From: Promethearchaeota archaeon
GTDB lineage: Archaea; Asgardarchaeota; Lokiarchaeia; Sigyniarchaeales; SOKP01
Assembly: GCA_016930515.1 (NCBI GenBank)
Contig: JAFGGO010000162.1
Location: forward strand, 1 to 57,396
DNA: 57,396 bases
Direction: 5' to 3'
The notes beneath the pieces are model-generated. The model made no database searches and was not told where the DNA came from. It worked only from the letters and a program-made list of their open reading frames with translations. Positions 19,572-51,228 of this stretch are shown here, piece after piece; within the stretch, counting starts at the first letter, position 1; each line of letters starts with the position of its first letter. A program made the position numbers and the translations under genes.

Positions 19572-20093
19572 TCAAGAGTTTTCTAAATTGCTCAGACAAT
19601 CTATTGCAATTTGTTGGAACGCTTCTTCAACATTTTCCCCCGTTTTAGCGCTTGTTTCCATGTACTTGCATTCCATTTTTTCGGCCATTTTTTTAACCTC
19701 TTCCATGTCCACCTCACGTTCCAAGTCGTTTTTATTTCCCAAGAGGATCATGGGAATATTTTTCTTGACCGATTTTTTTATCGAACTAATCCAACCCGGA
19801 ATCTTTAGAAGACTTTCGGGATCGTCGAGCGCAAACACTCCAATCGCAGCGTTACTTCCCTTGAAGTAAATAGAACGAAGCTTGTGGAATTGAGCTTGTC
19901 CTCCAATGTCCCATAAAAGCAATCTTACGCTTTTGTCATTTAATTTCACATCTTTAATTAAAAAATTGCTTCCTATAGTTTTTTTCAAGCTATCTGAGAA
20001 ATAATCCTTGATATATCGAAGAAGCAATGAGGTTTTTCCCACTGAAGCAGGTCCGAATAAACATATCTTAAATTTGTAGTTTTGGGTAGACAT
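19572..20093 (-). CDS. Rab-like small GTPase (Ras superfamily)
   Basis: G1 GPASVGKTS, G2 TIG, G3 WDIGGQ, G4 NKND, G5 ETSAK. No C-terminal prenylation motif. Confidence 0.93.
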   Translation of the reverse strand: MSTQNYKFKICLFGPASVGKTSLLLRYIKDYFSDSLKKTIGSNFLIKDVKLNDKSVRLLLWDIGGQAQFHKLRSIYFKGSNAAIGVFALDDPESLLKIPGWISSIKKSVKKNIPMILLGNKNDLEREVDMEEVKKMAEKMECKYMETSAKTGENVEEAFQQIAIDCLSNLENS

Positions 20094-33200: not shown

Positions 33201-33584
33201 TCATTTTTTTGATAACTTGCAATTCAGGCCGTTTCGAACTGTTTGAAAAAAGGTTACATTAGATACGAGTTTTCCTATACGATTAACATTGTTTGGCATT
33301 TCAATGTCCTCAATAGCGATAATTATTTCGTCAGATTTGGGATTATAAGCAAGATCACCTTTTTGAATCGTCTTGGTTGCTTTCGAATCAGGACCTTTTC
33401 GTATTCCAACATTCATTAACATCCAATATTTATTCGAACCAAATCCAAATCTCCCTCGAAGAACGAAAGGCATTTTATTTAAAATGGCGTCGGCACTGAT
33501 AGGACCTAAATGTCGAATGATCGTAGCGTCAACAGATCCCACTCCTAAAAAATCGATTTCGATTGGTATTTCTGCTTCAGACAT
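33201..33584 (-). CDS. Cyclophilin-like fold protein (DUF369/UPF0288-like)
   Basis: RHLGPISADAILNKMP...KGDLAYNP...VNRIGK. Confidence 0.65.
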   Translation of the reverse strand: MSEAEIPIEIDFLGVGSVDATIIRHLGPISADAILNKMPFVLRGRFGFGSNKYWMLMNVGIRKGPDSKATKTIQKGDLAYNPKSDEIIIAIEDIEMPNNVNRIGKLVSNVTFFQTVRNGLNCKLSKK

Positions 33585-33712: not shown

Positions 33713-33877
33713 TTATTTCGTTAATTCACGTCGCTTAAGTCTTAGTTCCTTGCCGTGACATCTCCTGCATTTCTTTGCCTTTACGGGATTCAAGGCACCA
33801 CACCTGCGGCAAACACTCTTTTCTAAAAGGTGATATCGTGCTATTTTACGCTTGAAAAGGTCGTCTATAGGGGCCAT
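33713..33877 (-). CDS. rpl40e: 50S ribosomal protein L40e (absent from the ORF track)
   Basis: MAPIDDLFKRKIARYHLLEKSVCRRCGALNPVKAKKCRRCHGKELRLKRRELTK, the C4 L40e signature. Confidence 0.93.
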   Translation of the reverse strand: MAPIDDLFKRKIARYHLLEKSVCRRCGALNPVKAKKCRRCHGKELRLKRRELTK

Positions 33878-34153
33878 ATTCCATCGATTTGTTTAGAGTA
33901 ATTCCATGTGTATTATGAAAAGTATAAAAAGAATAATTAAGGCAATAAATTAAGTTTTTTGTTTTTGATGGTTGACTTTTTAAGGGTAATTCATAGTATA
34001 GAACTTTTAGAGACAACGGTATATTAACAGCAAATACTTGTAAAAAAATAAAGTATAATCCTTATTATGATATACCGATGTAAAAACAAAAAAATTAAAA
34101 TTCCATGTTTAATTGAAGTATATATTATAGAATCATTTTAGAACTTGAACAAG

Positions 34154-34348
34154 ATGCCGCGAGAAATATTTGACGAAAATAAATTTTTAGAATTATCTGA
34201 ATACGCCGTCCATTGTCGGGTAAAATCAACCAAGGAGTCGGTCAAGTTAAAATTAAGGACAAAAAAAAATTTATATACTTACAAAACCGACCCGCAATCC
34301 GCAGAACGCCTTTTGAAAAACATTAGTTGCGATGTTATAGAATTGTAA
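34154..34348 (+). CDS. rpl38e: Ribosomal protein L38e
   Basis: MPREIFDENKFLEL...VKLKLRTKKNLYTYK matches eL38 (MPxxI...KFKxR..YLYT). Confidence 0.88.
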   Translation: MPREIFDENKFLELSEYAVHCRVKSTKESVKLKLRTKKNLYTYKTDPQSAERLLKNISCDVIEL

Positions 34349-38759: not shown

Positions 38760-40562
38760 TTAGTTGTGGGGATTTTCCTTTTTCTTTTCCAGTTGAAGCT
38801 TGGTCTCTGGAGTCAATTCAATACCCAAAACTTCTAATTGTTCATCGGTCGCTGGAGAAGGTGCGTCCCCCAAGGGTAAAACGGCCTTCTTTGTTTTTGG
38901 AAACGCAATGACCTCTCGAATGCCAGGTTCGTCGACCATAATCATGACCAAACGGTCCAAACCAATTGCCAAACCACCATGAGGAGGAGCACCATATTTT
39001 AGAGCTTCTATAAGGAACGAGAAGTTTTGCTCGGCAATTTCGGGGGGTATTTCGAGAGTTTTAAACACTCTTTCTTGAATCTCGGGTTTGTGAATACGGA
39101 TACTACCACCACCAATTTCGTATCCATTTAAAACGATATCGTAAGCGTTCGCAAGAGCATCCTCAGGATTGGTATCAAAAGTATCTAAGAATTCTGGTTT
39201 ACAAGAGGTAAACGGATGATGTACAGCCGTCCATCGCCTTTCTTCTTCGCTCCATTCGAATAGTGGAAAGTCAACAACCCAAAGAAAGTTAAATTTATCT
39301 TTTGGTACTAGGTTCATGTCGTTTCCCAACTTAATCCTTAGTTCACCCAATCCCCTGTACACATTAGAGCTTTTTCCACCAGCTAAGATCACTAAATCGC
39401 CGTCTTTGGCCTTTAAGCGCTTGAATATATTTTTTATCACGTCATCGCTGAGAAACTTCGTCAGTGGGCTGACAAATTCACCATTGATCAATTTAATATT
39501 AGCCAATTCCTTTGTCTTAAACTTTTGAACATAAGATCGCCACTTGTTAAACACCTTGTTAGAGATGTCTGCATTCTTTTCAATTTTTATTGCACTAATG
39601 ATTCCGTGTTTTTGTTCGAACACTTCCTTAAAAATTGAAACATCCTTGGGAATAAGATCGGTAATACCAACGAGTTCCAATCCAAAGCGCGTGTCAGGCT
39701 TGTCCACGCCAAAGCGGGACATTGCTTCTTTATATGACATCCGTGGAAATGGGGTCTTGATGTTCTTGTTCAGGATGACTTTAAATAAATGCTTGATCAA
39801 TCCCTCCACGACTGAAATCACATCGTCTTGGTTTACGAACGACATTTCTAGGTCAATTTGCGTGAATTCAGGCTGTCTTTCTGGCCGCAAATCCTCGTCT
39901 CGAAGGCATCGAGCGATCTGGTAATATTTTTCGAAACCAGATATCATTAACATTTGTTTAAACAATTGAGGAGATTGGGGTAATGCGTAAAATTTTCCCT
40001 GGTGCACCCTACTTGGAACGAGATAATCTCGGGCACCTTCAGGCGTACTTTTCGTCAATAAAGGTGTCTCGATTTCGAAGAATCCTAAATTATCAAAATA
40101 TTTCCTCGTTTCGGAGGTTATCTTTGCTCTCGTTTTAATGTTTTCCTGCAACTTGGGATGTCTTAAATCTATATAGCGATATTGCAATCTTACTTTATGT
40201 TTGGCCTTATCCTTATCTTTAAAGTGATACGGAAGGGGTTCTGCCGTGTTTAAAATTTCGAGCGTCTCAATTTCGACTTCTATATCGCCCGTTGCAAGAT
40301 CCTTGTTCTCCGTTCCCTCGGGACGATTTCTCACGAATCCACCAACCTCAATCACTGACTCGCGATTGAGCGCCTTGATCTTCTCGTTAAGTTCTTCGTT
40401 TATTTCGTCTCTCTTGGTAACAACTTGAGTGATGCCCTCCCAATCTCTTAAATCAATGAAATAAGTCGTCTTATGTTCCCTGATTGCGTGACACCACCCC
40501 GCCACGGTTACTTTTTTGCCCACATCGGATTTCCTTAACGCTCCACACGAAATTTGTTTCAT
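38760..40562 (-). CDS. aspS: Aspartyl-tRNA synthetase, bacterial type with GAD insertion, probably non-discriminating
   Basis: 600 aa; STPEGARDYLVPSR, ALPQSPQLFKQ, RDEDLR..RQPEFTQIDLE, GGGSIRIH, YGAPPHGG.A.GLDR; GAD insert present. Confidence 0.95.
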   Translation of the reverse strand: MKQISCGALRKSDVGKKVTVAGWCHAIREHKTTYFIDLRDWEGITQVVTKRDEINEELNEKIKALNRESVIEVGGFVRNRPEGTENKDLATGDIEVEIETLEILNTAEPLPYHFKDKDKAKHKVRLQYRYIDLRHPKLQENIKTRAKITSETRKYFDNLGFFEIETPLLTKSTPEGARDYLVPSRVHQGKFYALPQSPQLFKQMLMISGFEKYYQIARCLRDEDLRPERQPEFTQIDLEMSFVNQDDVISVVEGLIKHLFKVILNKNIKTPFPRMSYKEAMSRFGVDKPDTRFGLELVGITDLIPKDVSIFKEVFEQKHGIISAIKIEKNADISNKVFNKWRSYVQKFKTKELANIKLINGEFVSPLTKFLSDDVIKNIFKRLKAKDGDLVILAGGKSSNVYRGLGELRIKLGNDMNLVPKDKFNFLWVVDFPLFEWSEEERRWTAVHHPFTSCKPEFLDTFDTNPEDALANAYDIVLNGYEIGGGSIRIHKPEIQERVFKTLEIPPEIAEQNFSFLIEALKYGAPPHGGLAIGLDRLVMIMVDEPGIREVIAFPKTKKAVLPLGDAPSPATDEQLEVLGIELTPETKLQLEKKKENPHN

Positions 40563-40720
40563 TTACGACACGCTTCTGTTATTGATTAGTTCTATTACAA
40601 TCTTTTAATTTTCTAAATGCTAAAGTGGTGTTTAGTAAAAATAATTTTCGATTCAACCTTTAAAAACAAAGGCACATAACATATTATAAAAGAGACTATT
40701 TTTTCGATTTTGATCGTATC

Positions 40721-41647
40721 ATGACGGAAGATTTCAAGATTATATTGGAGTCCTATATTAAAGCGGGAAAAGCGGTTGTTGCCGCTAAAAAGTTGGCTAA
40801 AAAACTCGTTGAGCCAGGTGCCAAGTTCTTGAATATCGCAGAGGAATGTGAAAGCGAAATTCTAAAGAACGGCACGGAACTAGCGTTTCCAATTAACATG
40901 TCCCTAAACGAACACGCCGCTCACTATAGCCCGACTATCGGGGATCAAACAATCGTGCCCGAAAAAGGACTACTTAAAATTGATTTAGGTGCACATTACA
41001 ACGGTTATATCGCAGATTCTGCGTTTACAATAAATCTAGACGAAGATCCAGCCCTTCAGAACTATATTGACGCTGCCAACGAGGGACTTGAAGCAGCTAT
41101 CGAAAGATTCACGCCAGGCACGCTCTTATACGAGTTAGGGGAGGCTATAGAAGATAAGATTTTAAAAAGAGGTTTAAAACCCATCACGAACTTAGGAGGA
41201 CATCAACTCAAGCAATACGACTTGCATGCCGGGCCTTTCATTCCAAACCACAAGGACACACACCACGATAAAATGTTAGAACCAGGAGACGCTTACGCGT
41301 GCGAACCATTTTCGACATCTGGAGCGGGTTTGGTCGTGAACGGGAAGCATTCTTATATTTATAGACTCGATAAAAAAGTAAAAAAAAACATGAGCTACGA
41401 AGACAAAAATTACATGAGCAAGATAGAGAAAATCTGCGGGAGACTCCCGTTTTCTCCCAGGATCTTGGCAAGCACGGACACAATTCCAAGGGCAAAAATA
41501 GATCGAGTAATTAATAATTTCGTCAGGAAACAAGTTCTCGCTCATTACCCTATTTTAATCGAGCGAACAGGTGCCTTGGTGGCACAACAAGAGCACACTA
41601 TCGTGTTGGACATGAATGGTAATACAATTGTCACCACCAGGGAATGA
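40721..41647 (+). CDS. map: Methionine aminopeptidase type II
   Basis: AFPIN, AAHYSP, KIDLGAH.NGYIADSA, NLGGH, LHAG, CEPF, QQEHT. Confidence 0.95.
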   Translation: MTEDFKIILESYIKAGKAVVAAKKLAKKLVEPGAKFLNIAEECESEILKNGTELAFPINMSLNEHAAHYSPTIGDQTIVPEKGLLKIDLGAHYNGYIADSAFTINLDEDPALQNYIDAANEGLEAAIERFTPGTLLYELGEAIEDKILKRGLKPITNLGGHQLKQYDLHAGPFIPNHKDTHHDKMLEPGDAYACEPFSTSGAGLVVNGKHSYIYRLDKKVKKNMSYEDKNYMSKIEKICGRLPFSPRILASTDTIPRAKIDRVINNFVRKQVLAHYPILIERTGALVAQQEHTIVLDMNGNTIVTTRE

Positions 41648-41688
41648 AAATTAACCGCTGGTGATTTGATAGAAAGAAGCGATAATAA

Positions 41689-42528
41689 ATGGAAGAAAAA
41701 GACTTGTCTCAAGATAATTTCTTAGCTATCGTGCTCTGTGCAGGTCTTGGTTCGAGAATGGGCGAACTTGCCAATATCTGCCCTAAACCCCTATTAAAAC
41801 CTGAATCATTAAATGGAAAATCTATATTGCAGGTATCGATAGAGAACCTCTCAAAATTCGATTTTAAGGAAATATTCGTTGTTATAGGCCATCTAAAAGA
41901 ACAGATAACGAATTTCGTTAAAGAATTAAGTTTGAAAGTTAATATAGTCGATTCCAAAGAAGAATATAAAAAGGGACCATTAGATTCGCTTCTTTCAGCA
42001 CTAAAATCGTGTAAAATAAGCGAATATCGTAAAGAAAAAGAAAAAAAAAAACACATTCTTGTTCTTCCAGGCGATACTATATTTGACGAGGCTTTAATTA
42101 ACGCAATAATATCCAAGTTACAACGGACAAGCACGAATTCAAAAGAAAAACCAACTCTTTTTTTTAGAGAAATTACGACTAATTATTTGCGTGAGAGCCT
42201 TAAATGTCACAAACTTCCGTTTTTATTTTCAACGATCTCGTTTAAAAAAGACCAAGATATAATCTTTGTGGATACCATCAAGCAATTGTCGCTTGAAAGC
42301 TTAAATAAATCCGAATCGCAAGTTCAACAGGTGATACCCATTTTTGCGTTTCCCATATCGTTTATAGAGAGAATTTTGGCATTAGAACCTAAATTAAAGG
42401 AACGAACATTAGTTGCATTAATCAACCACTCTTTATCGAATGGCGAAGAGATCTTGGGTTTAAAGCTCGATCCTAATCTCCACTTTTACGATATTGACGA
42501 GAAAGGAGATTTGAACGCAATTCATTGA
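41689..42528 (+). CDS. Nucleotidyltransferase-family protein (divergent)
   Basis: AIVLCAGLGSRM...PKPLL, LPGD, C-terminal FYDIDEKGDL. Confidence 0.75.
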   Translation: MEEKDLSQDNFLAIVLCAGLGSRMGELANICPKPLLKPESLNGKSILQVSIENLSKFDFKEIFVVIGHLKEQITNFVKELSLKVNIVDSKEEYKKGPLDSLLSALKSCKISEYRKEKEKKKHILVLPGDTIFDEALINAIISKLQRTSTNSKEKPTLFFREITTNYLRESLKCHKLPFLFSTISFKKDQDIIFVDTIKQLSLESLNKSESQVQQVIPIFAFPISFIERILALEPKLKERTLVALINHSLSNGEEILGLKLDPNLHFYDIDEKGDLNAIH

Positions 42529-42570
42529 TTTACAAATCCGAACAATGTTTTATTTCATATCACATTTTTC

Positions 42571-42586
42571 AAAAAAAGAAAAAAAG
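42571..42586 (-). terminator. Oligo-T terminator
   Basis: Plus-strand AAAAAAAGAAAAAAAG gives a minus-strand T tract directly after the 3' arm of the terminal helix. Confidence 0.55.
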
Positions 42587-42951
42587 AGGACAATAGTAAT
42601 TCAATGATGTGCTGAATTACTATCTTTAACGCTAAAATTCACCTGTCATACTGGTGAGTTCCAACCGCAAGAGCTTGTTTCAAGACCTCAACACGCGTAC
42701 ATTAAACCACTTAACCGTGTCAATGTTTATCGAGCCGTGGTCGGATCAGGTTGTCACTGCTTCAAGTATCAGAGAACTTCGGCGCGATGACGAAATAAGG
42801 TCTTTTATCGTACGATAAAAGGGCTGATGGAAGTAAAAATGAATTTAGAGACTGATAATCCAAAAAAATATCAAATACTGGTTATTCCTTAACGGATATT
42901 AAAATTGTATTTATGGTTTTAACCAATGCATTACTTTTTACTATTGTCCAC
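42586..42951 (-). ncRNA. Candidate structured ncRNA of about 365 nt, family unknown
   Basis: ORF-free, locally more GC-rich gap. 12-bp terminal inverted repeat (42588-42599 / 42938-42949), several internal hairpins, TATA box about 23 nt upstream, oligo-T run immediately downstream on the minus strand. Confidence 0.62.
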
Positions 42952-42971
42952 TATACTAATCGTAATTCTCC

Positions 42972-42986
42972 TATATAAATCTTCGG
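42972..42986 (-). promoter_or_regulatory. Archaeal BRE/TATA promoter for the candidate ncRNA
   Basis: Minus strand reads CGAAGA-TTTATATA, with the 5' arm of the terminal helix (GGAC) about 23 nt downstream. Confidence 0.6.
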
Positions 42987-43049
42987 TTGATAGTTTATTA
43001 CTGATTTCTTTCACGAGATAGGATTAGACAAAAGTGTGAATTAGAACTA

Positions 43050-43886
43050 TTACTTGACGAAATCTGAATAACGAGGTTTTACCAACAAGCCCGCAAATAC
43101 TACTAGAAAAATCGACAAATCCACGATTTCGCTAAAGACAATATAGGTTGCCGTGAGTCCAAGCAGTGTCTGGGCCACTGGGCGTAATATTTGGGACATT
43201 AGATACAATAAAAAAGAAACGCAGAGCAAGAGGGAATGAACTTGGGTCAGAAGCTTGTTCCTGTAAGTAAAGGCAAATATTAAAGCTATCATGAGAATGG
43301 AAGGAATCACGATCAAGGGCAGGATGTAGCGAGACGAGTGCACATCCAAAAAAAATACGACCACAAGAAGCTCAAGGGTAACGACTAGACCAAGGATAAC
43401 GGCTTTTACTTTATTACGGCTCCTTTTTGATTCGAGCTTGACCTTAGTTTTATAGGATGTAATAGCGTATAAGATAACTTCGAGACTTAACACGTATAGC
43501 GGAACGAGATCAAGAACGGCAACAATGTAACGAAGCTTGTATACGAGATCAAACGCGCTAGTAGTTGCCGTGAAAAAGATGAGATTATAAAGCAAGTCGA
43601 GCGACTTTCCAAACACGAGAATTGCGAAAAATATTCCAAATAAGAACGGAATGTCGTCGTAAAATTGCTTTTCGGCTTTAAACCACCGCCTGAACATTGT
43701 CAAAGCCATGAAAGCCAACACGAGCATCCGGAGAGTGATGATGAGAACCACGAAAAAGCCGCCCTCTATGGTTTGATACGCATAGATGATAGCTTGAGCA
43801 TTAATTAAATATAAAATTAATACGCCAAAACATCCAAATATACTGGTAACAGCAATGCTGACCTTTTTGACAACAACCGAGTTCAT
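43050..43886 (-). CDS. Multi-pass (7-8 TM) membrane protein of unknown function
   Basis: Hydrophobic helices throughout 278 aa. Confidence 0.78.
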   Translation of the reverse strand: MNSVVVKKVSIAVTSIFGCFGVLILYLINAQAIIYAYQTIEGGFFVVLIITLRMLVLAFMALTMFRRWFKAEKQFYDDIPFLFGIFFAILVFGKSLDLLYNLIFFTATTSAFDLVYKLRYIVAVLDLVPLYVLSLEVILYAITSYKTKVKLESKRSRNKVKAVILGLVVTLELLVVVFFLDVHSSRYILPLIVIPSILMIALIFAFTYRNKLLTQVHSLLLCVSFLLYLMSQILRPVAQTLLGLTATYIVFSEIVDLSIFLVVFAGLLVKPRYSDFVK

Positions 43887-44018
43887 ATTTGATAATTTTA
43901 TTTCATTATTTTAAAGGGCACTAATATATCTGCATTAAAATCTAAAGCACCCTCTTGCAGAAAAACATAATAAACACATCTTTATTAATTAGGATCAAAA
44001 AATTCAACTTCTATACCA

Positions 44019-49380: not shown

Positions 49381-51228
49381 TTGGTTCCCAAGAAAATGAA
49401 AGATTCTTATAATGAAAACTCCGATATTAAAGGCAAACCTTATGGATATATCTATAGGATTACGAACGATATAAACGGTAAAGTTTATATTGGCAAGGTT
49501 GAATGTGAGCGATTCGGAGAAGAGGATCCCCTGGAAGGTCGATTTGGTGAACATGTGAACATTGCCGAAAAGCTTCAAAAAAAGCGAGATAATAATCCTA
49601 GCGAGAAATTCTACGGCACGCACTTGAATAACGCAATCAATTACTATGGTGTCGAGAAATTCAACATAGAAATGATTGACAATGCGCAATCCTTGGAAGA
49701 ATTGAACTCCAAAGAAAAACATCACATTAAAGAACACGATTCAATGGATCCGAACAAGGGATACAACATGCGAGAAGGTGGAGAAGGTGGAAGATTACAT
49801 CCAGATACTATTGAGAAATTAAGAGAGATTAGTCTTGATAAATGGCAAGATGAGAAATATCGAGAAAAAGTCCTTGAGAGCTTAAAGGATGCAATGAGCG
49901 ATCCAACTTATCATAAAAATATGAGCGAAGCTATCACGAATAAATGGCAAGATGAAAAGTATCGGGAAAAGCAAGAAAAGGAAAGACAAGAACGTATTCA
50001 AAATAAACCCGAATGGAGCAATACTATGAGCGAAGTTATCAAGGATAAATGGCAAGATGAAAAATATCGGGGAAAACAAATAAAAGAAAGGCAAGAACGA
50101 GCTCTGAAAAATCCCGAATTTAAAGATATTATGAGTGAGAGAAATCAGGATCGAGCCAAGGATCCAAATTGGAGAGAAAAAATGACCAGGATAAACCAAG
50201 AACGAGCCAAGGATCCAAATTGGAGAGATAAAATGAGCGAAGTCATCTCAGAGAAATGGCAAGATAAAGAATATCGGGAAAAAATGGATAAATACCACGA
50301 ACAAATGAAAAAACACATAAATCTTAAAGAAACTCTCAATGACATCAAGGCAGGTGCGACAAAGAGCGAAATTCTCAAGAAACAAGACATTGGCAAAACT
50401 GCCTTTTCTAAAAGAATAGAAGAGCATTTTGGATATCAAGACATACACAACTTTACCGAGCTCAAGGAATCGCTCAAGAACAAAAGCGTGGAAGACGCAA
50501 TCCGAGAGCTGGAAGAACACTCCAAGGAAAAGGAACTCAAGCAATCCGAACACCCTGACGCTAAGCTCCCAGACGCTTCTAGAAATACAGATATCAAGGG
50601 AGACGTCCCTGAAAAATCAAGCGAAAAACTCCATCCGAAAGAAAATCTTGTTCCCGATCAACCAAGCCTGGAAGGTTCAAAGGATCTCCAGCAGGATCGA
50701 GAGCAAGAGCAGGAACTAAAGCAAGAGGAAACTCCAAAAATAGTTGAACCGACGCCAATAGTAGACGATTTCCAATGGTTAGAGGATGAACTAACACCAG
50801 AAGCTTCTCAAGAGAAGCAGCCAATCGTTTCAGACGAGGTTATTCAAGATGAAAAGGGAATTCGTGAGCAGCTAGATATTCCAAACGACGACAAGAAAAA
50901 GCAACCAACTAATTCCGAAAAAAATCAGGATACAAAGACCAAGGATGGGAACAAAAAGGACAATACCCTCAAGAGCGGCCATTACGCGAGGCACGACAAT
51001 TCCAATCACGCTAAAAGAGCCCCTTACTGCGTTCCCTACGAGCGGCTCGAAGTTGAGGATCGACCAACGGCGATTAACGATTTCGACTTTGATGGGATAT
51101 CGGCTCAATGCGACGATTCCTTGGATACGAGCCTGTTCGAAGACTCTGACGATTCTAAAGAAAGCGACCTTGGGGGTCTGGGGAACTTTTCCGGCTCGGA
51201 GGGAAGCTCGTCCGAGTTTTTCGACTAA
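49381..51228 (+). CDS. GIY-YIG endonuclease with NUMOD3-like helical repeats and an acidic disordered tail (in frame with the downstream ATPase)
   Basis: YGYIYRITNDINGKVYIGK, R..EH, LNSKEKHHI, GYNMREGG; repeated KWQDEKYREK and RAKDPNWREKM. Confidence 0.85.
   Translation: MVPKKMKDSYNENSDIKGKPYGYIYRITNDINGKVYIGKVECERFGEEDPLEGRFGEHVNIAEKLQKKRDNNPSEKFYGTHLNNAINYYGVEKFNIEMIDNAQSLEELNSKEKHHIKEHDSMDPNKGYNMREGGEGGRLHPDTIEKLREISLDKWQDEKYREKVLESLKDAMSDPTYHKNMSEAITNKWQDEKYREKQEKERQERIQNKPEWSNTMSEVIKDKWQDEKYRGKQIKERQERALKNPEFKDIMSERNQDRAKDPNWREKMTRINQERAKDPNWRDKMSEVISEKWQDKEYREKMDKYHEQMKKHINLKETLNDIKAGATKSEILKKQDIGKTAFSKRIEEHFGYQDIHNFTELKESLKNKSVEDAIRELEEHSKEKELKQSEHPDAKLPDASRNTDIKGDVPEKSSEKLHPKENLVPDQPSLEGSKDLQQDREQEQELKQEETPKIVEPTPIVDDFQWLEDELTPEASQEKQPIVSDEVIQDEKGIREQLDIPNDDKKKQPTNSEKNQDTKTKDGNKKDNTLKSGHYARHDNSNHAKRAPYCVPYERLEVEDRPTAINDFDFDGISAQCDDSLDTSLFEDSDDSKESDLGGLGNFSGSEGSSSEFFD
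49841..50283 (+). repeat. Intragenic imperfect tandem repeats
   Basis: aaatggcaagat...tatcg occurs 4 times (about 49841, 49943, 50048, 50254); cgagccaaggatccaaattggagaga occurs twice (50152, 50203). Confidence 0.85.

Follow-up and report, generated by a model that had tools for sequence, protein, structure and literature searches.

An RNA gene in the gap between two convergent genes of this lokiarchaeial genome is very likely real, and it very likely represents a previously uncatalogued family of large RNAs belonging to one Asgard lineage, whose function is inferred. The minus strand of the window (the whole 57,396-nt stretch of DNA that was analysed) carries this gene as an independent unit, with a TATA promoter and a U-tract terminator of its own; it is present as a single copy and is vertically inherited. 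The elements that define the gene and its flanks are the following.

42985–42980, minus strand: BRE-like purine-rich element CGAAGA, seen in the sequence; the consensus before TATA is AAGA across 39 homologues
42979–42972, minus strand: TATA box TTTATATA, 30 nt upstream of the first G
42588–42949, minus strand: RNA gene, 362 nt, its ends inferred from promoter spacing, the closing helix P1 and the U-tract
42949–42938, minus strand: P1 5' strand, 12 bp of perfect pairing with 42599–42588
42599–42588, minus strand: P1 3' strand, pairing with 42949–42938
42587–42571, minus strand: terminal U-tracts, an archaeal terminator, seen in the sequence and also in homologues
41689–42528, plus strand: flanking NTP-transferase gene (Pfam NTP_transf_3), convergent with the RNA gene
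40721–41647, plus strand: map (methionine aminopeptidase, Pfam Peptidase_M24), a conserved neighbour by synteny

The RNA gene and its boundaries

The first G of the RNA gene is at position 42949 of the minus strand. The TATA columns are nearly invariant in the homologue alignment, and the distance from the start of TTTAWA to the first G is 30–31 nt in 76 of 90 homologues, which is the usual archaeal spacing between TATA box and start (PMC12817955). Termination at U4-tracts is known in archaea, including that by the Loki aCPSF1 (PMC8716108). The gap is bordered by the convergent reading frames 41689–42528 (plus strand) and 43050–43886 (minus strand), of which the latter is membrane-protein-like and has no Pfam match. 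No ORF of at least 60 residues in the ORF list of the window overlaps the gap, and the longest ATG-initiated ORF in the homologues has a median length of 18 codons, with no conserved ORF among them. An earlier note, made from sequence alone, had placed CGAAGA, TTTATATA, the perfect pairing of the ends and the U-tract at these minus-strand places, in an ORF-free gap between two convergent genes, and all of this held.

The gene is present once in the 4.0-Mb genome. Its folding z-score is −2.05 with flanks and −3.8 for the exact RNA (12 shuffles). The reverse strand folds equally well or better in several homologues, so that folding energy cannot be used to assign the strand, and the assignment rests on the promoter, the U-tract and the wobble pairs of P1.

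Homologues, synteny and the closing helix

BLAST finds full-length relatives in the same genus only, at 68–72% identity, and the wider homologues were traced by following the neighbouring genes. In total, 90 homologues from 13 genera were delimited; they are 345–632 nt long, with a GC content of 24–37% in the first 32. Every family locus examined has the same layout: a TATA box, a GG or GA start, an end-to-end helix, a CAWUGG motif and a U-tract. The 5' promoter and start pattern matches 109 of the family's 134 genomes, with some chance matches among them.

The two ends of the RNA pair with each other (P1) around an interior of variable length. Pairs 1–9 of P1 form in 90/90 delimited homologues, a count that is partly circular because the pairing was used to set the 3' end. 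An independent control is provided by the 114 matches to the 5' pattern in the database that are followed by sufficient DNA: the complementary 3' strand and U-tract are found in 52 of the 54 matches next to map or the NTP-transferase gene versus 3 of the 60 located elsewhere, and two of these three look like further homologues on contigs that lack the flanking genes. Both strands of P1 change together, for example at position 1 (G-C to A-U) and at position 4 (C-G to U-A or G-C), the divergent copy of genome G068 retains pairing with several positions changed, and the G-U wobbles of P1 agree with one RNA strand. In one genome, two contigs carry identical 5' starts of the RNA gene (G137:C57 and G137:C117), perhaps a duplicated contig.

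In 13 genera, all of one Promethearchaeota (Lokiarchaeia) family, the RNA gene has map and the NTP-transferase gene as neighbours; map and aspS adjoin the two genes that border the gap. In genus g4 the NTP-transferase gene is gone from the locus and the RNA gene is retained. This persistence, together with changes of the upstream gene, argues that the RNA is neither an antisense RNA nor a 3' UTR.

Several observations were made on the surrounding genes. In most relatives, a cyclophilin-like gene is directly upstream of the RNA gene and divergently transcribed; here it is found at 33201–33584 (minus strand), about 9 kb away, which implies a local rearrangement. The aspartyl-tRNA synthetase at 38760–40562 (minus strand; aspS by Pfam) contains a GAD domain, i.e. 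it is of the bacterial type, and is only ~22% identical to the aspS found beside map in relatives, suggesting that aspS was replaced in this genus. Two short ORFs, 33713–33877 (minus strand) and 34145–34348 (plus strand), which resemble ribosomal proteins eL40 and eL38, are near Alba-, Pth2- and TruD-like genes. At 49381–51228 (plus strand) there is a 615-residue ORF whose N-terminal part is a GIY-YIG (SegE-like) endonuclease domain, with repeats and a low-complexity tail behind it.

The class is apparently limited to one Lokiarchaeia family; this is possible rather than established, and a diverged copy elsewhere is not excluded. The gene was not found in other Lokiarchaeia families or in the other Asgard genomes searched, with searches that are insensitive. 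It is missing from the map/NTP-transferase loci of G055, G050 and G044, all outside the family; G055 and G050 are complete genomes, in which map and the NTP-transferase gene stay together without it. Loci of the cyclophilin-like gene outside the family have no such gene either, and patterns and two models produced nothing convincing there. The 3' model fails to recover genera g1, g3, g4 and g8 as well, and no more than 51–62 candidates were scored per genome, so absence outside the family is not shown. Eight viral matches to the 5' pattern were rejected, as the closing helix is missing. At the order level, the distribution is patchy.

Conserved elements of the interior

The interior is lineage-specific; what is kept in most genera is P1, CAWUGG, an A-U(5–12) tract and a UCRDWG motif. 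The interior elements, all on the minus strand, are listed from the 5' end of the RNA.

42923–42928, minus strand: CAWUGG motif, present in 89/90 homologues at nt 14–28
42861–42869, minus strand: internal A-U7-G tract, a candidate Sm/Lsm site or internal pause/terminator; no binding data
42749–42769, minus strand: 5' side of an inner arm (AUACU and CAACC strands), paired in 4/4 same-genus sequences with little variation
42648–42666, minus strand: 3' side of the inner arm (GGUUG and AGUAU strands), genus-conserved, pairing with 42749–42769
42645–42647, minus strand: GAC, first half of a split internal copy of the P1 5' strand; homology to this position is inferred
42613–42623, minus strand: internal AUAG-UAAUUCA strand, which forms an alternative 3' hairpin with 42603–42593 in competition with P1
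42602–42607, minus strand: UCRDWG motif, present in 71/90 homologues, 18–20 nt from the 3' end

The U and G of CAWUGG are its only invariant columns in an alignment of 39 homologues, and a search of the homologues for a partner found no consistent intramolecular one. A run of 5–12 U at nt 55–135, mostly at nt 80–105, is present in 78/90 homologues versus 79/269 control windows. It is preceded by A in 65 of the 78 and followed by G in only 20, it is missing in genera g8, g5 and g10, and its unpaired probability is mixed, i.e. the tract is only modestly predicted to be single-stranded.

In genera g1, g2, g6, g10 and g11, an internal strand containing AUAG, with GAC at a distance before it, is a second copy of the P1 5' strand, able to pair with the P1 3' strand in its place. 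The resulting alternative hairpin has 12 bp in 4/4 same-genus sequences; in the RNA described here, the two folds are 0.3 kcal/mol apart, and the alternative end fold is as stable as P1 in most g2, g6, g10 and g11 sequences. The GAC is invariant in 25 sequences of g2, g6, g11 and g13 and reads AAC in two same-genus sequences. A competing copy is not evident in g3, g4, g8 and g9.

The helices of the 3' domain in g2, g6, g11 and g13 are 85% paired versus 38–47% in slid controls. Their covariation is not significant: four pairs show two-sided change, and 123 of 500 shuffles score as high. Covariation analysis, which the earlier note had suggested as a check, thus gives compensatory changes for P1 and nothing significant for the inner helices. 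The same note had described a 20-bp palindrome (42802–42821) and several smaller helices. All are present in this sequence, and GAG-CTTG/CAAG-CTC, whose conservation in same-genus homologues was not scored, is among them; the palindrome, TCACC/GGTGA, ACACG/CGTGT, TATCAG/CTGATA and ACTTC/GAAGT are not in register in three same-genus homologues and are species-specific.

Evidence of transcription

The sequence of the RNA was recovered almost end to end from RNA libraries. Contigs from four metatranscriptome runs of four studies, selected because they contain the stretch, were mapped on 40600–44000. Near-identical contigs cover 42611–42927, 42609–42934, 42673–42927 and 42694–42904, all inside the predicted ends, and diverged relatives of the RNA are also found among the metatranscriptome contigs. 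No contig from this organism maps on map, the NTP-transferase gene or the upstream ORF, and the sole match in the flanks is a 40-nt partial alignment by an unrelated contig. This confinement to the RNA gene argues against carry-over of DNA and for a discrete RNA. Assembled contigs carry no information on strand, exact ends or level. Three same-study RNA runs contain next to none of the RNA's words, which is not evidence of absence.

These data bear on the possibility that the locus is a mobile-element relic (MITE-like) or a DNA-level signal with incidental transcription. Short terminal inverted repeats (9–12 bp), a fast-changing interior and the patchy order-level distribution would be consistent with it. 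It is all but excluded by the single copy, by the same locus in 13 genera, by the lack of a transposase or reverse transcriptase beside the RNA gene, by G-U wobbles that fit an RNA strand, and by the conserved promoter and the RNA contigs. A MITE was likewise rejected as an identity, given the single copy and the locus fixed in 13 genera; the many dispersed copies that the earlier note had said would refute an RNA gene were not found.

Comparison with known RNA families

Rfam searches gave no meaningful match for this RNA (E up to 10) or for 20 homologous loci (E up to 5); this check, which the earlier note had proposed, returned chance matches only. The RNA is not RNase P RNA, SRP RNA, 5S rRNA or a piece of 16S/23S rRNA, since the same genomes have these at other places. 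Archaeal RNase P RNA (RF00373, P4 pseudoknot) does not match, and the true copy is located at G000:C72 of this genome with 107.7 bits. Archaeal SRP RNA (RF01857, helix 8 motif) does not match, and a normal SRP RNA stands alongside this gene in genomes G003 and G005; the 94%-complete assembly analysed here (G000) yielded no SRP RNA. An rRNA or rRNA fragment is ruled out by genome G012, which contains full SSU (1–1478) and LSU (1–2987) rRNAs and a weak 5S match in addition to the RNA gene, and which also carries SRP RNA; in G000, 5S rRNA is encoded elsewhere.

Like RNase P and SRP RNAs, the Loki RNA is a stand-alone archaeal RNA with paired 5' and 3' ends, comparable to their 300–400 nt, but unlike them it has no covariance-model match, lacks their conserved cores and ranges from 345 to 632 nt. 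The earlier note's second option, a divergent RNase P or SRP RNA, is therefore not supported. A paralogue of RNase P/MRP or SRP RNA that has diverged strongly, or else a ribozyme of unknown kind, would resemble it in size, end-to-end helix and stable-RNA behaviour, and the MRP RNA of eukaryotes is itself the product of an RNase P RNA duplication. Such an origin is very unlikely: there is no meaningful Rfam match, normal RNase P and SRP RNAs coexist with the gene, and no conserved catalytic-core motifs are seen in the alignments.

Other families were rejected on their own features. Telomerase, retron and group II intron RNAs have no support, since no RVT_1 match was found in the carriers G012 (100% complete) and G081, and no reverse transcriptase or transposase is adjacent to the gene. 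For an rRNA antisense guide (C/D, H/ACA or U3-like), the longest complementarity to rRNA is no better than in shuffles; the complement of CAWUGG is absent from the G012 SSU and LSU rRNAs. K-turn and H/ACA readings of the 3' hairpin fail on inspection because the tandem G-A pairs are not conserved. A search for La found nothing and, lacking a positive control, is uninformative.

A tmRNA was rejected (no G3-U70 pair, no encoded CCA, no tag ORF and no SmpB found in this genome), as was a Y RNA (no Ro60/TROVE, PF05731, found in G000, which is 94% complete). A looser relation, in which the RNA mimics the end and elbow of tRNA as bacterial Y RNA or the tRNA-like domain of tmRNA does, is unlikely. 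Here P1 (9–12 bp) would imitate the acceptor/T stack, the GG of CAWUGG and the UC of UCRDWG would make contact in the manner of D-loop and T-loop, and the RNA would engage tRNA-handling enzymes or the ribosome. In its favour, the ends are joined in a short conserved helix with GG and UC at tRNA-like spacing: in 57 of 71 motif-bearing homologues, the UC stands exactly 18 nt away from the final base of P1, where tRNA has U55-C56. Translation genes are also nearby (aspS by Pfam; Pth2, TruD and small ribosomal proteins by inspection). Against it, there is no T-stem or T-arm and no conserved A58, UCRDWG is usually inside a helix, and the missing G3-U70 pair, CCA, tag ORF, alanine identity, SmpB and Ro60 count here as well.

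The novel class of large noncoding RNA that the earlier note had inferred holds, given the lack of an Rfam match, the syntenic homologues with a covarying end helix, the gene-confined RNA contigs and the single copy; its assignment to Asgard archaea is narrowed to apparently one Lokiarchaeia family. No description of such an RNA was found in the open literature searched, including that on Lokiarchaeia; most subscription papers were not covered.

Observations on the 5S rRNA and other RNA genes

The 5S rRNA gene of the family appears to be circularly permuted, in this genome at G000:C70 ~19890–20045 (locus L175 1500–1670, plus strand) and also at loci L177, L195, L200 and L205. Its parts are ordered as loop C and the 3' half, a 2–3 nt link, the 5' strand of helix I, CAUAG or CAUGG, and the 5' strands of helices II and III, all enclosed by an 11-bp outer stem. 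These genes score 22–33 bits with Rfam versus 50–69 bits for the canonical 5S of the sister family. In L205 (G036:C233:9598–9746), the 3' arm has an extra insertion of ~30 nt. In the literature searched, permuted 5S rRNAs are described only for organelles (PMC4267664). In the 94%-complete assembly G000, 16S rRNA was not found, and on G000:C72 the RNase P RNA is 0.8 kb downstream of the 3' part of the 23S rRNA.

A possible Sm/Lsm-bound switchable particle

Since the RNA matches no catalogued family, it is taken, by inference, to be part of an undescribed RNA-protein particle. Our best guess, which we hold with slightly more doubt than confidence and without binding data, is a switchable RNA particle bound by Sm/Lsm proteins. 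The RNA would be stable and form the core of a ribonucleoprotein, like a small nuclear RNA of the Sm class or 7SK. An archaeal Sm/Lsm ring would load on the A-U(5–12) tract behind the first domain and would protect and organise the RNA, and the joined ends with CAWUGG and UCRDWG would make up a recognition site. In several genera, the split internal copy (GAC...AAUAG) would take over the 3' strand of P1, switching the RNA between a closed state and an open one that frees the first ~27 nt, CAWUGG among them. These freed nucleotides may bind a partner RNA or protein; the target has not been identified.

This reading draws support from the A-U tract being held at one position, from the 3–5 Lsm-family matches encoded per genome, with three paralogues at G000:C111, C186 and C166 in this one, from the binding preference of archaeal SmAPs for U-rich RNA (PMC12817955) and from the isoenergetic alternative end fold of this RNA. 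However, the tract is missing in three genera and the closing G of an Sm site mostly so, U-runs also serve as aCPSF1 terminator signals (PMC8716108), Lsm proteins are equally present in families that yielded no such RNA, no competing copy is evident in four genera, and the inner helices lack significant covariation.

The Loki RNA shares with the Sm-class snRNAs (U1, U2, U4, U5, U7) its own promoter, a short conserved motif close to the 5' end and a genome that encodes Sm-family proteins; its A-U-rich tract, lying between folded domains as theirs does, is only a candidate for an Sm site. Unlike them, it has no sequence match or known target, mostly lacks the closing G and has no binding data. 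As for 7SK, that RNA is about 330 nt or longer, starts with GG, ends in oligo-U and has a fast-evolving interior, and its 5' end has its pairing partner close to the 3' end, with an alternative fold; the likeness lies in these features, and the Loki RNA has no homology to 7SK. A bolder reading, possible and likewise inferred without binding data, is that an snRNA-type RNA bound by an Sm ring and equipped with a 5'-exposing switch is a prokaryotic counterpart of snRNPs or 7SK.

The alternative end fold can also be read as that of an RNA polymerase decoy like 6S RNA or Ms1, which we consider unlikely. The closed form would mimic an open promoter, and the polymerase would initiate a short product at the near-invariant U-G of CAWUGG, which gives a C-A initiator step in the product RNA. 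As it copied the 5' end, it would unwind P1, and the freed 3' strand would snap onto the internal copy and release the polymerase. Bacterial 6S RNA and mycobacterial Ms1 are likewise stand-alone RNAs from a conserved locus with a closing stem and an alternative 3' hairpin (PMC8414754), and the isoenergetic switch, the invariant U and G and the ready assembly of the RNA from RNA libraries also speak for a decoy. Against it, P1 is only 9–12 bp, the length ranges over 345–632 nt, some genera lack the competing copy, and archaea have no sigma factor; identity with 6S RNA itself is not met, as there is no long rod with a central bubble and no Rfam 6S match. No archaeal polymerase-binding RNA of the 6S kind is known to us, and a literature search found none. 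Functions other than the Sm/Lsm-bound particle and the alternatives named here are also unlikely.

Significance

The RNA was assembled from four metatranscriptomes in which the neighbouring mRNAs were not, and it is thus a sensitive marker of activity for its uncultured carriers. To our knowledge, archaea have no large conserved housekeeping-type RNA beyond rRNA, tRNA, RNase P, SRP, guide and mobile-element RNAs. Eukaryotes have many fast-evolving scaffold RNAs (snRNAs, 7SK, MRP and telomerase RNA), whose prokaryotic roots are unknown. Asgard archaea are close relatives of eukaryotes and encode several Lsm paralogues. A family-wide RNA of that build in these archaea provides a definite molecule for testing whether particles of this kind are older than eukaryotes.
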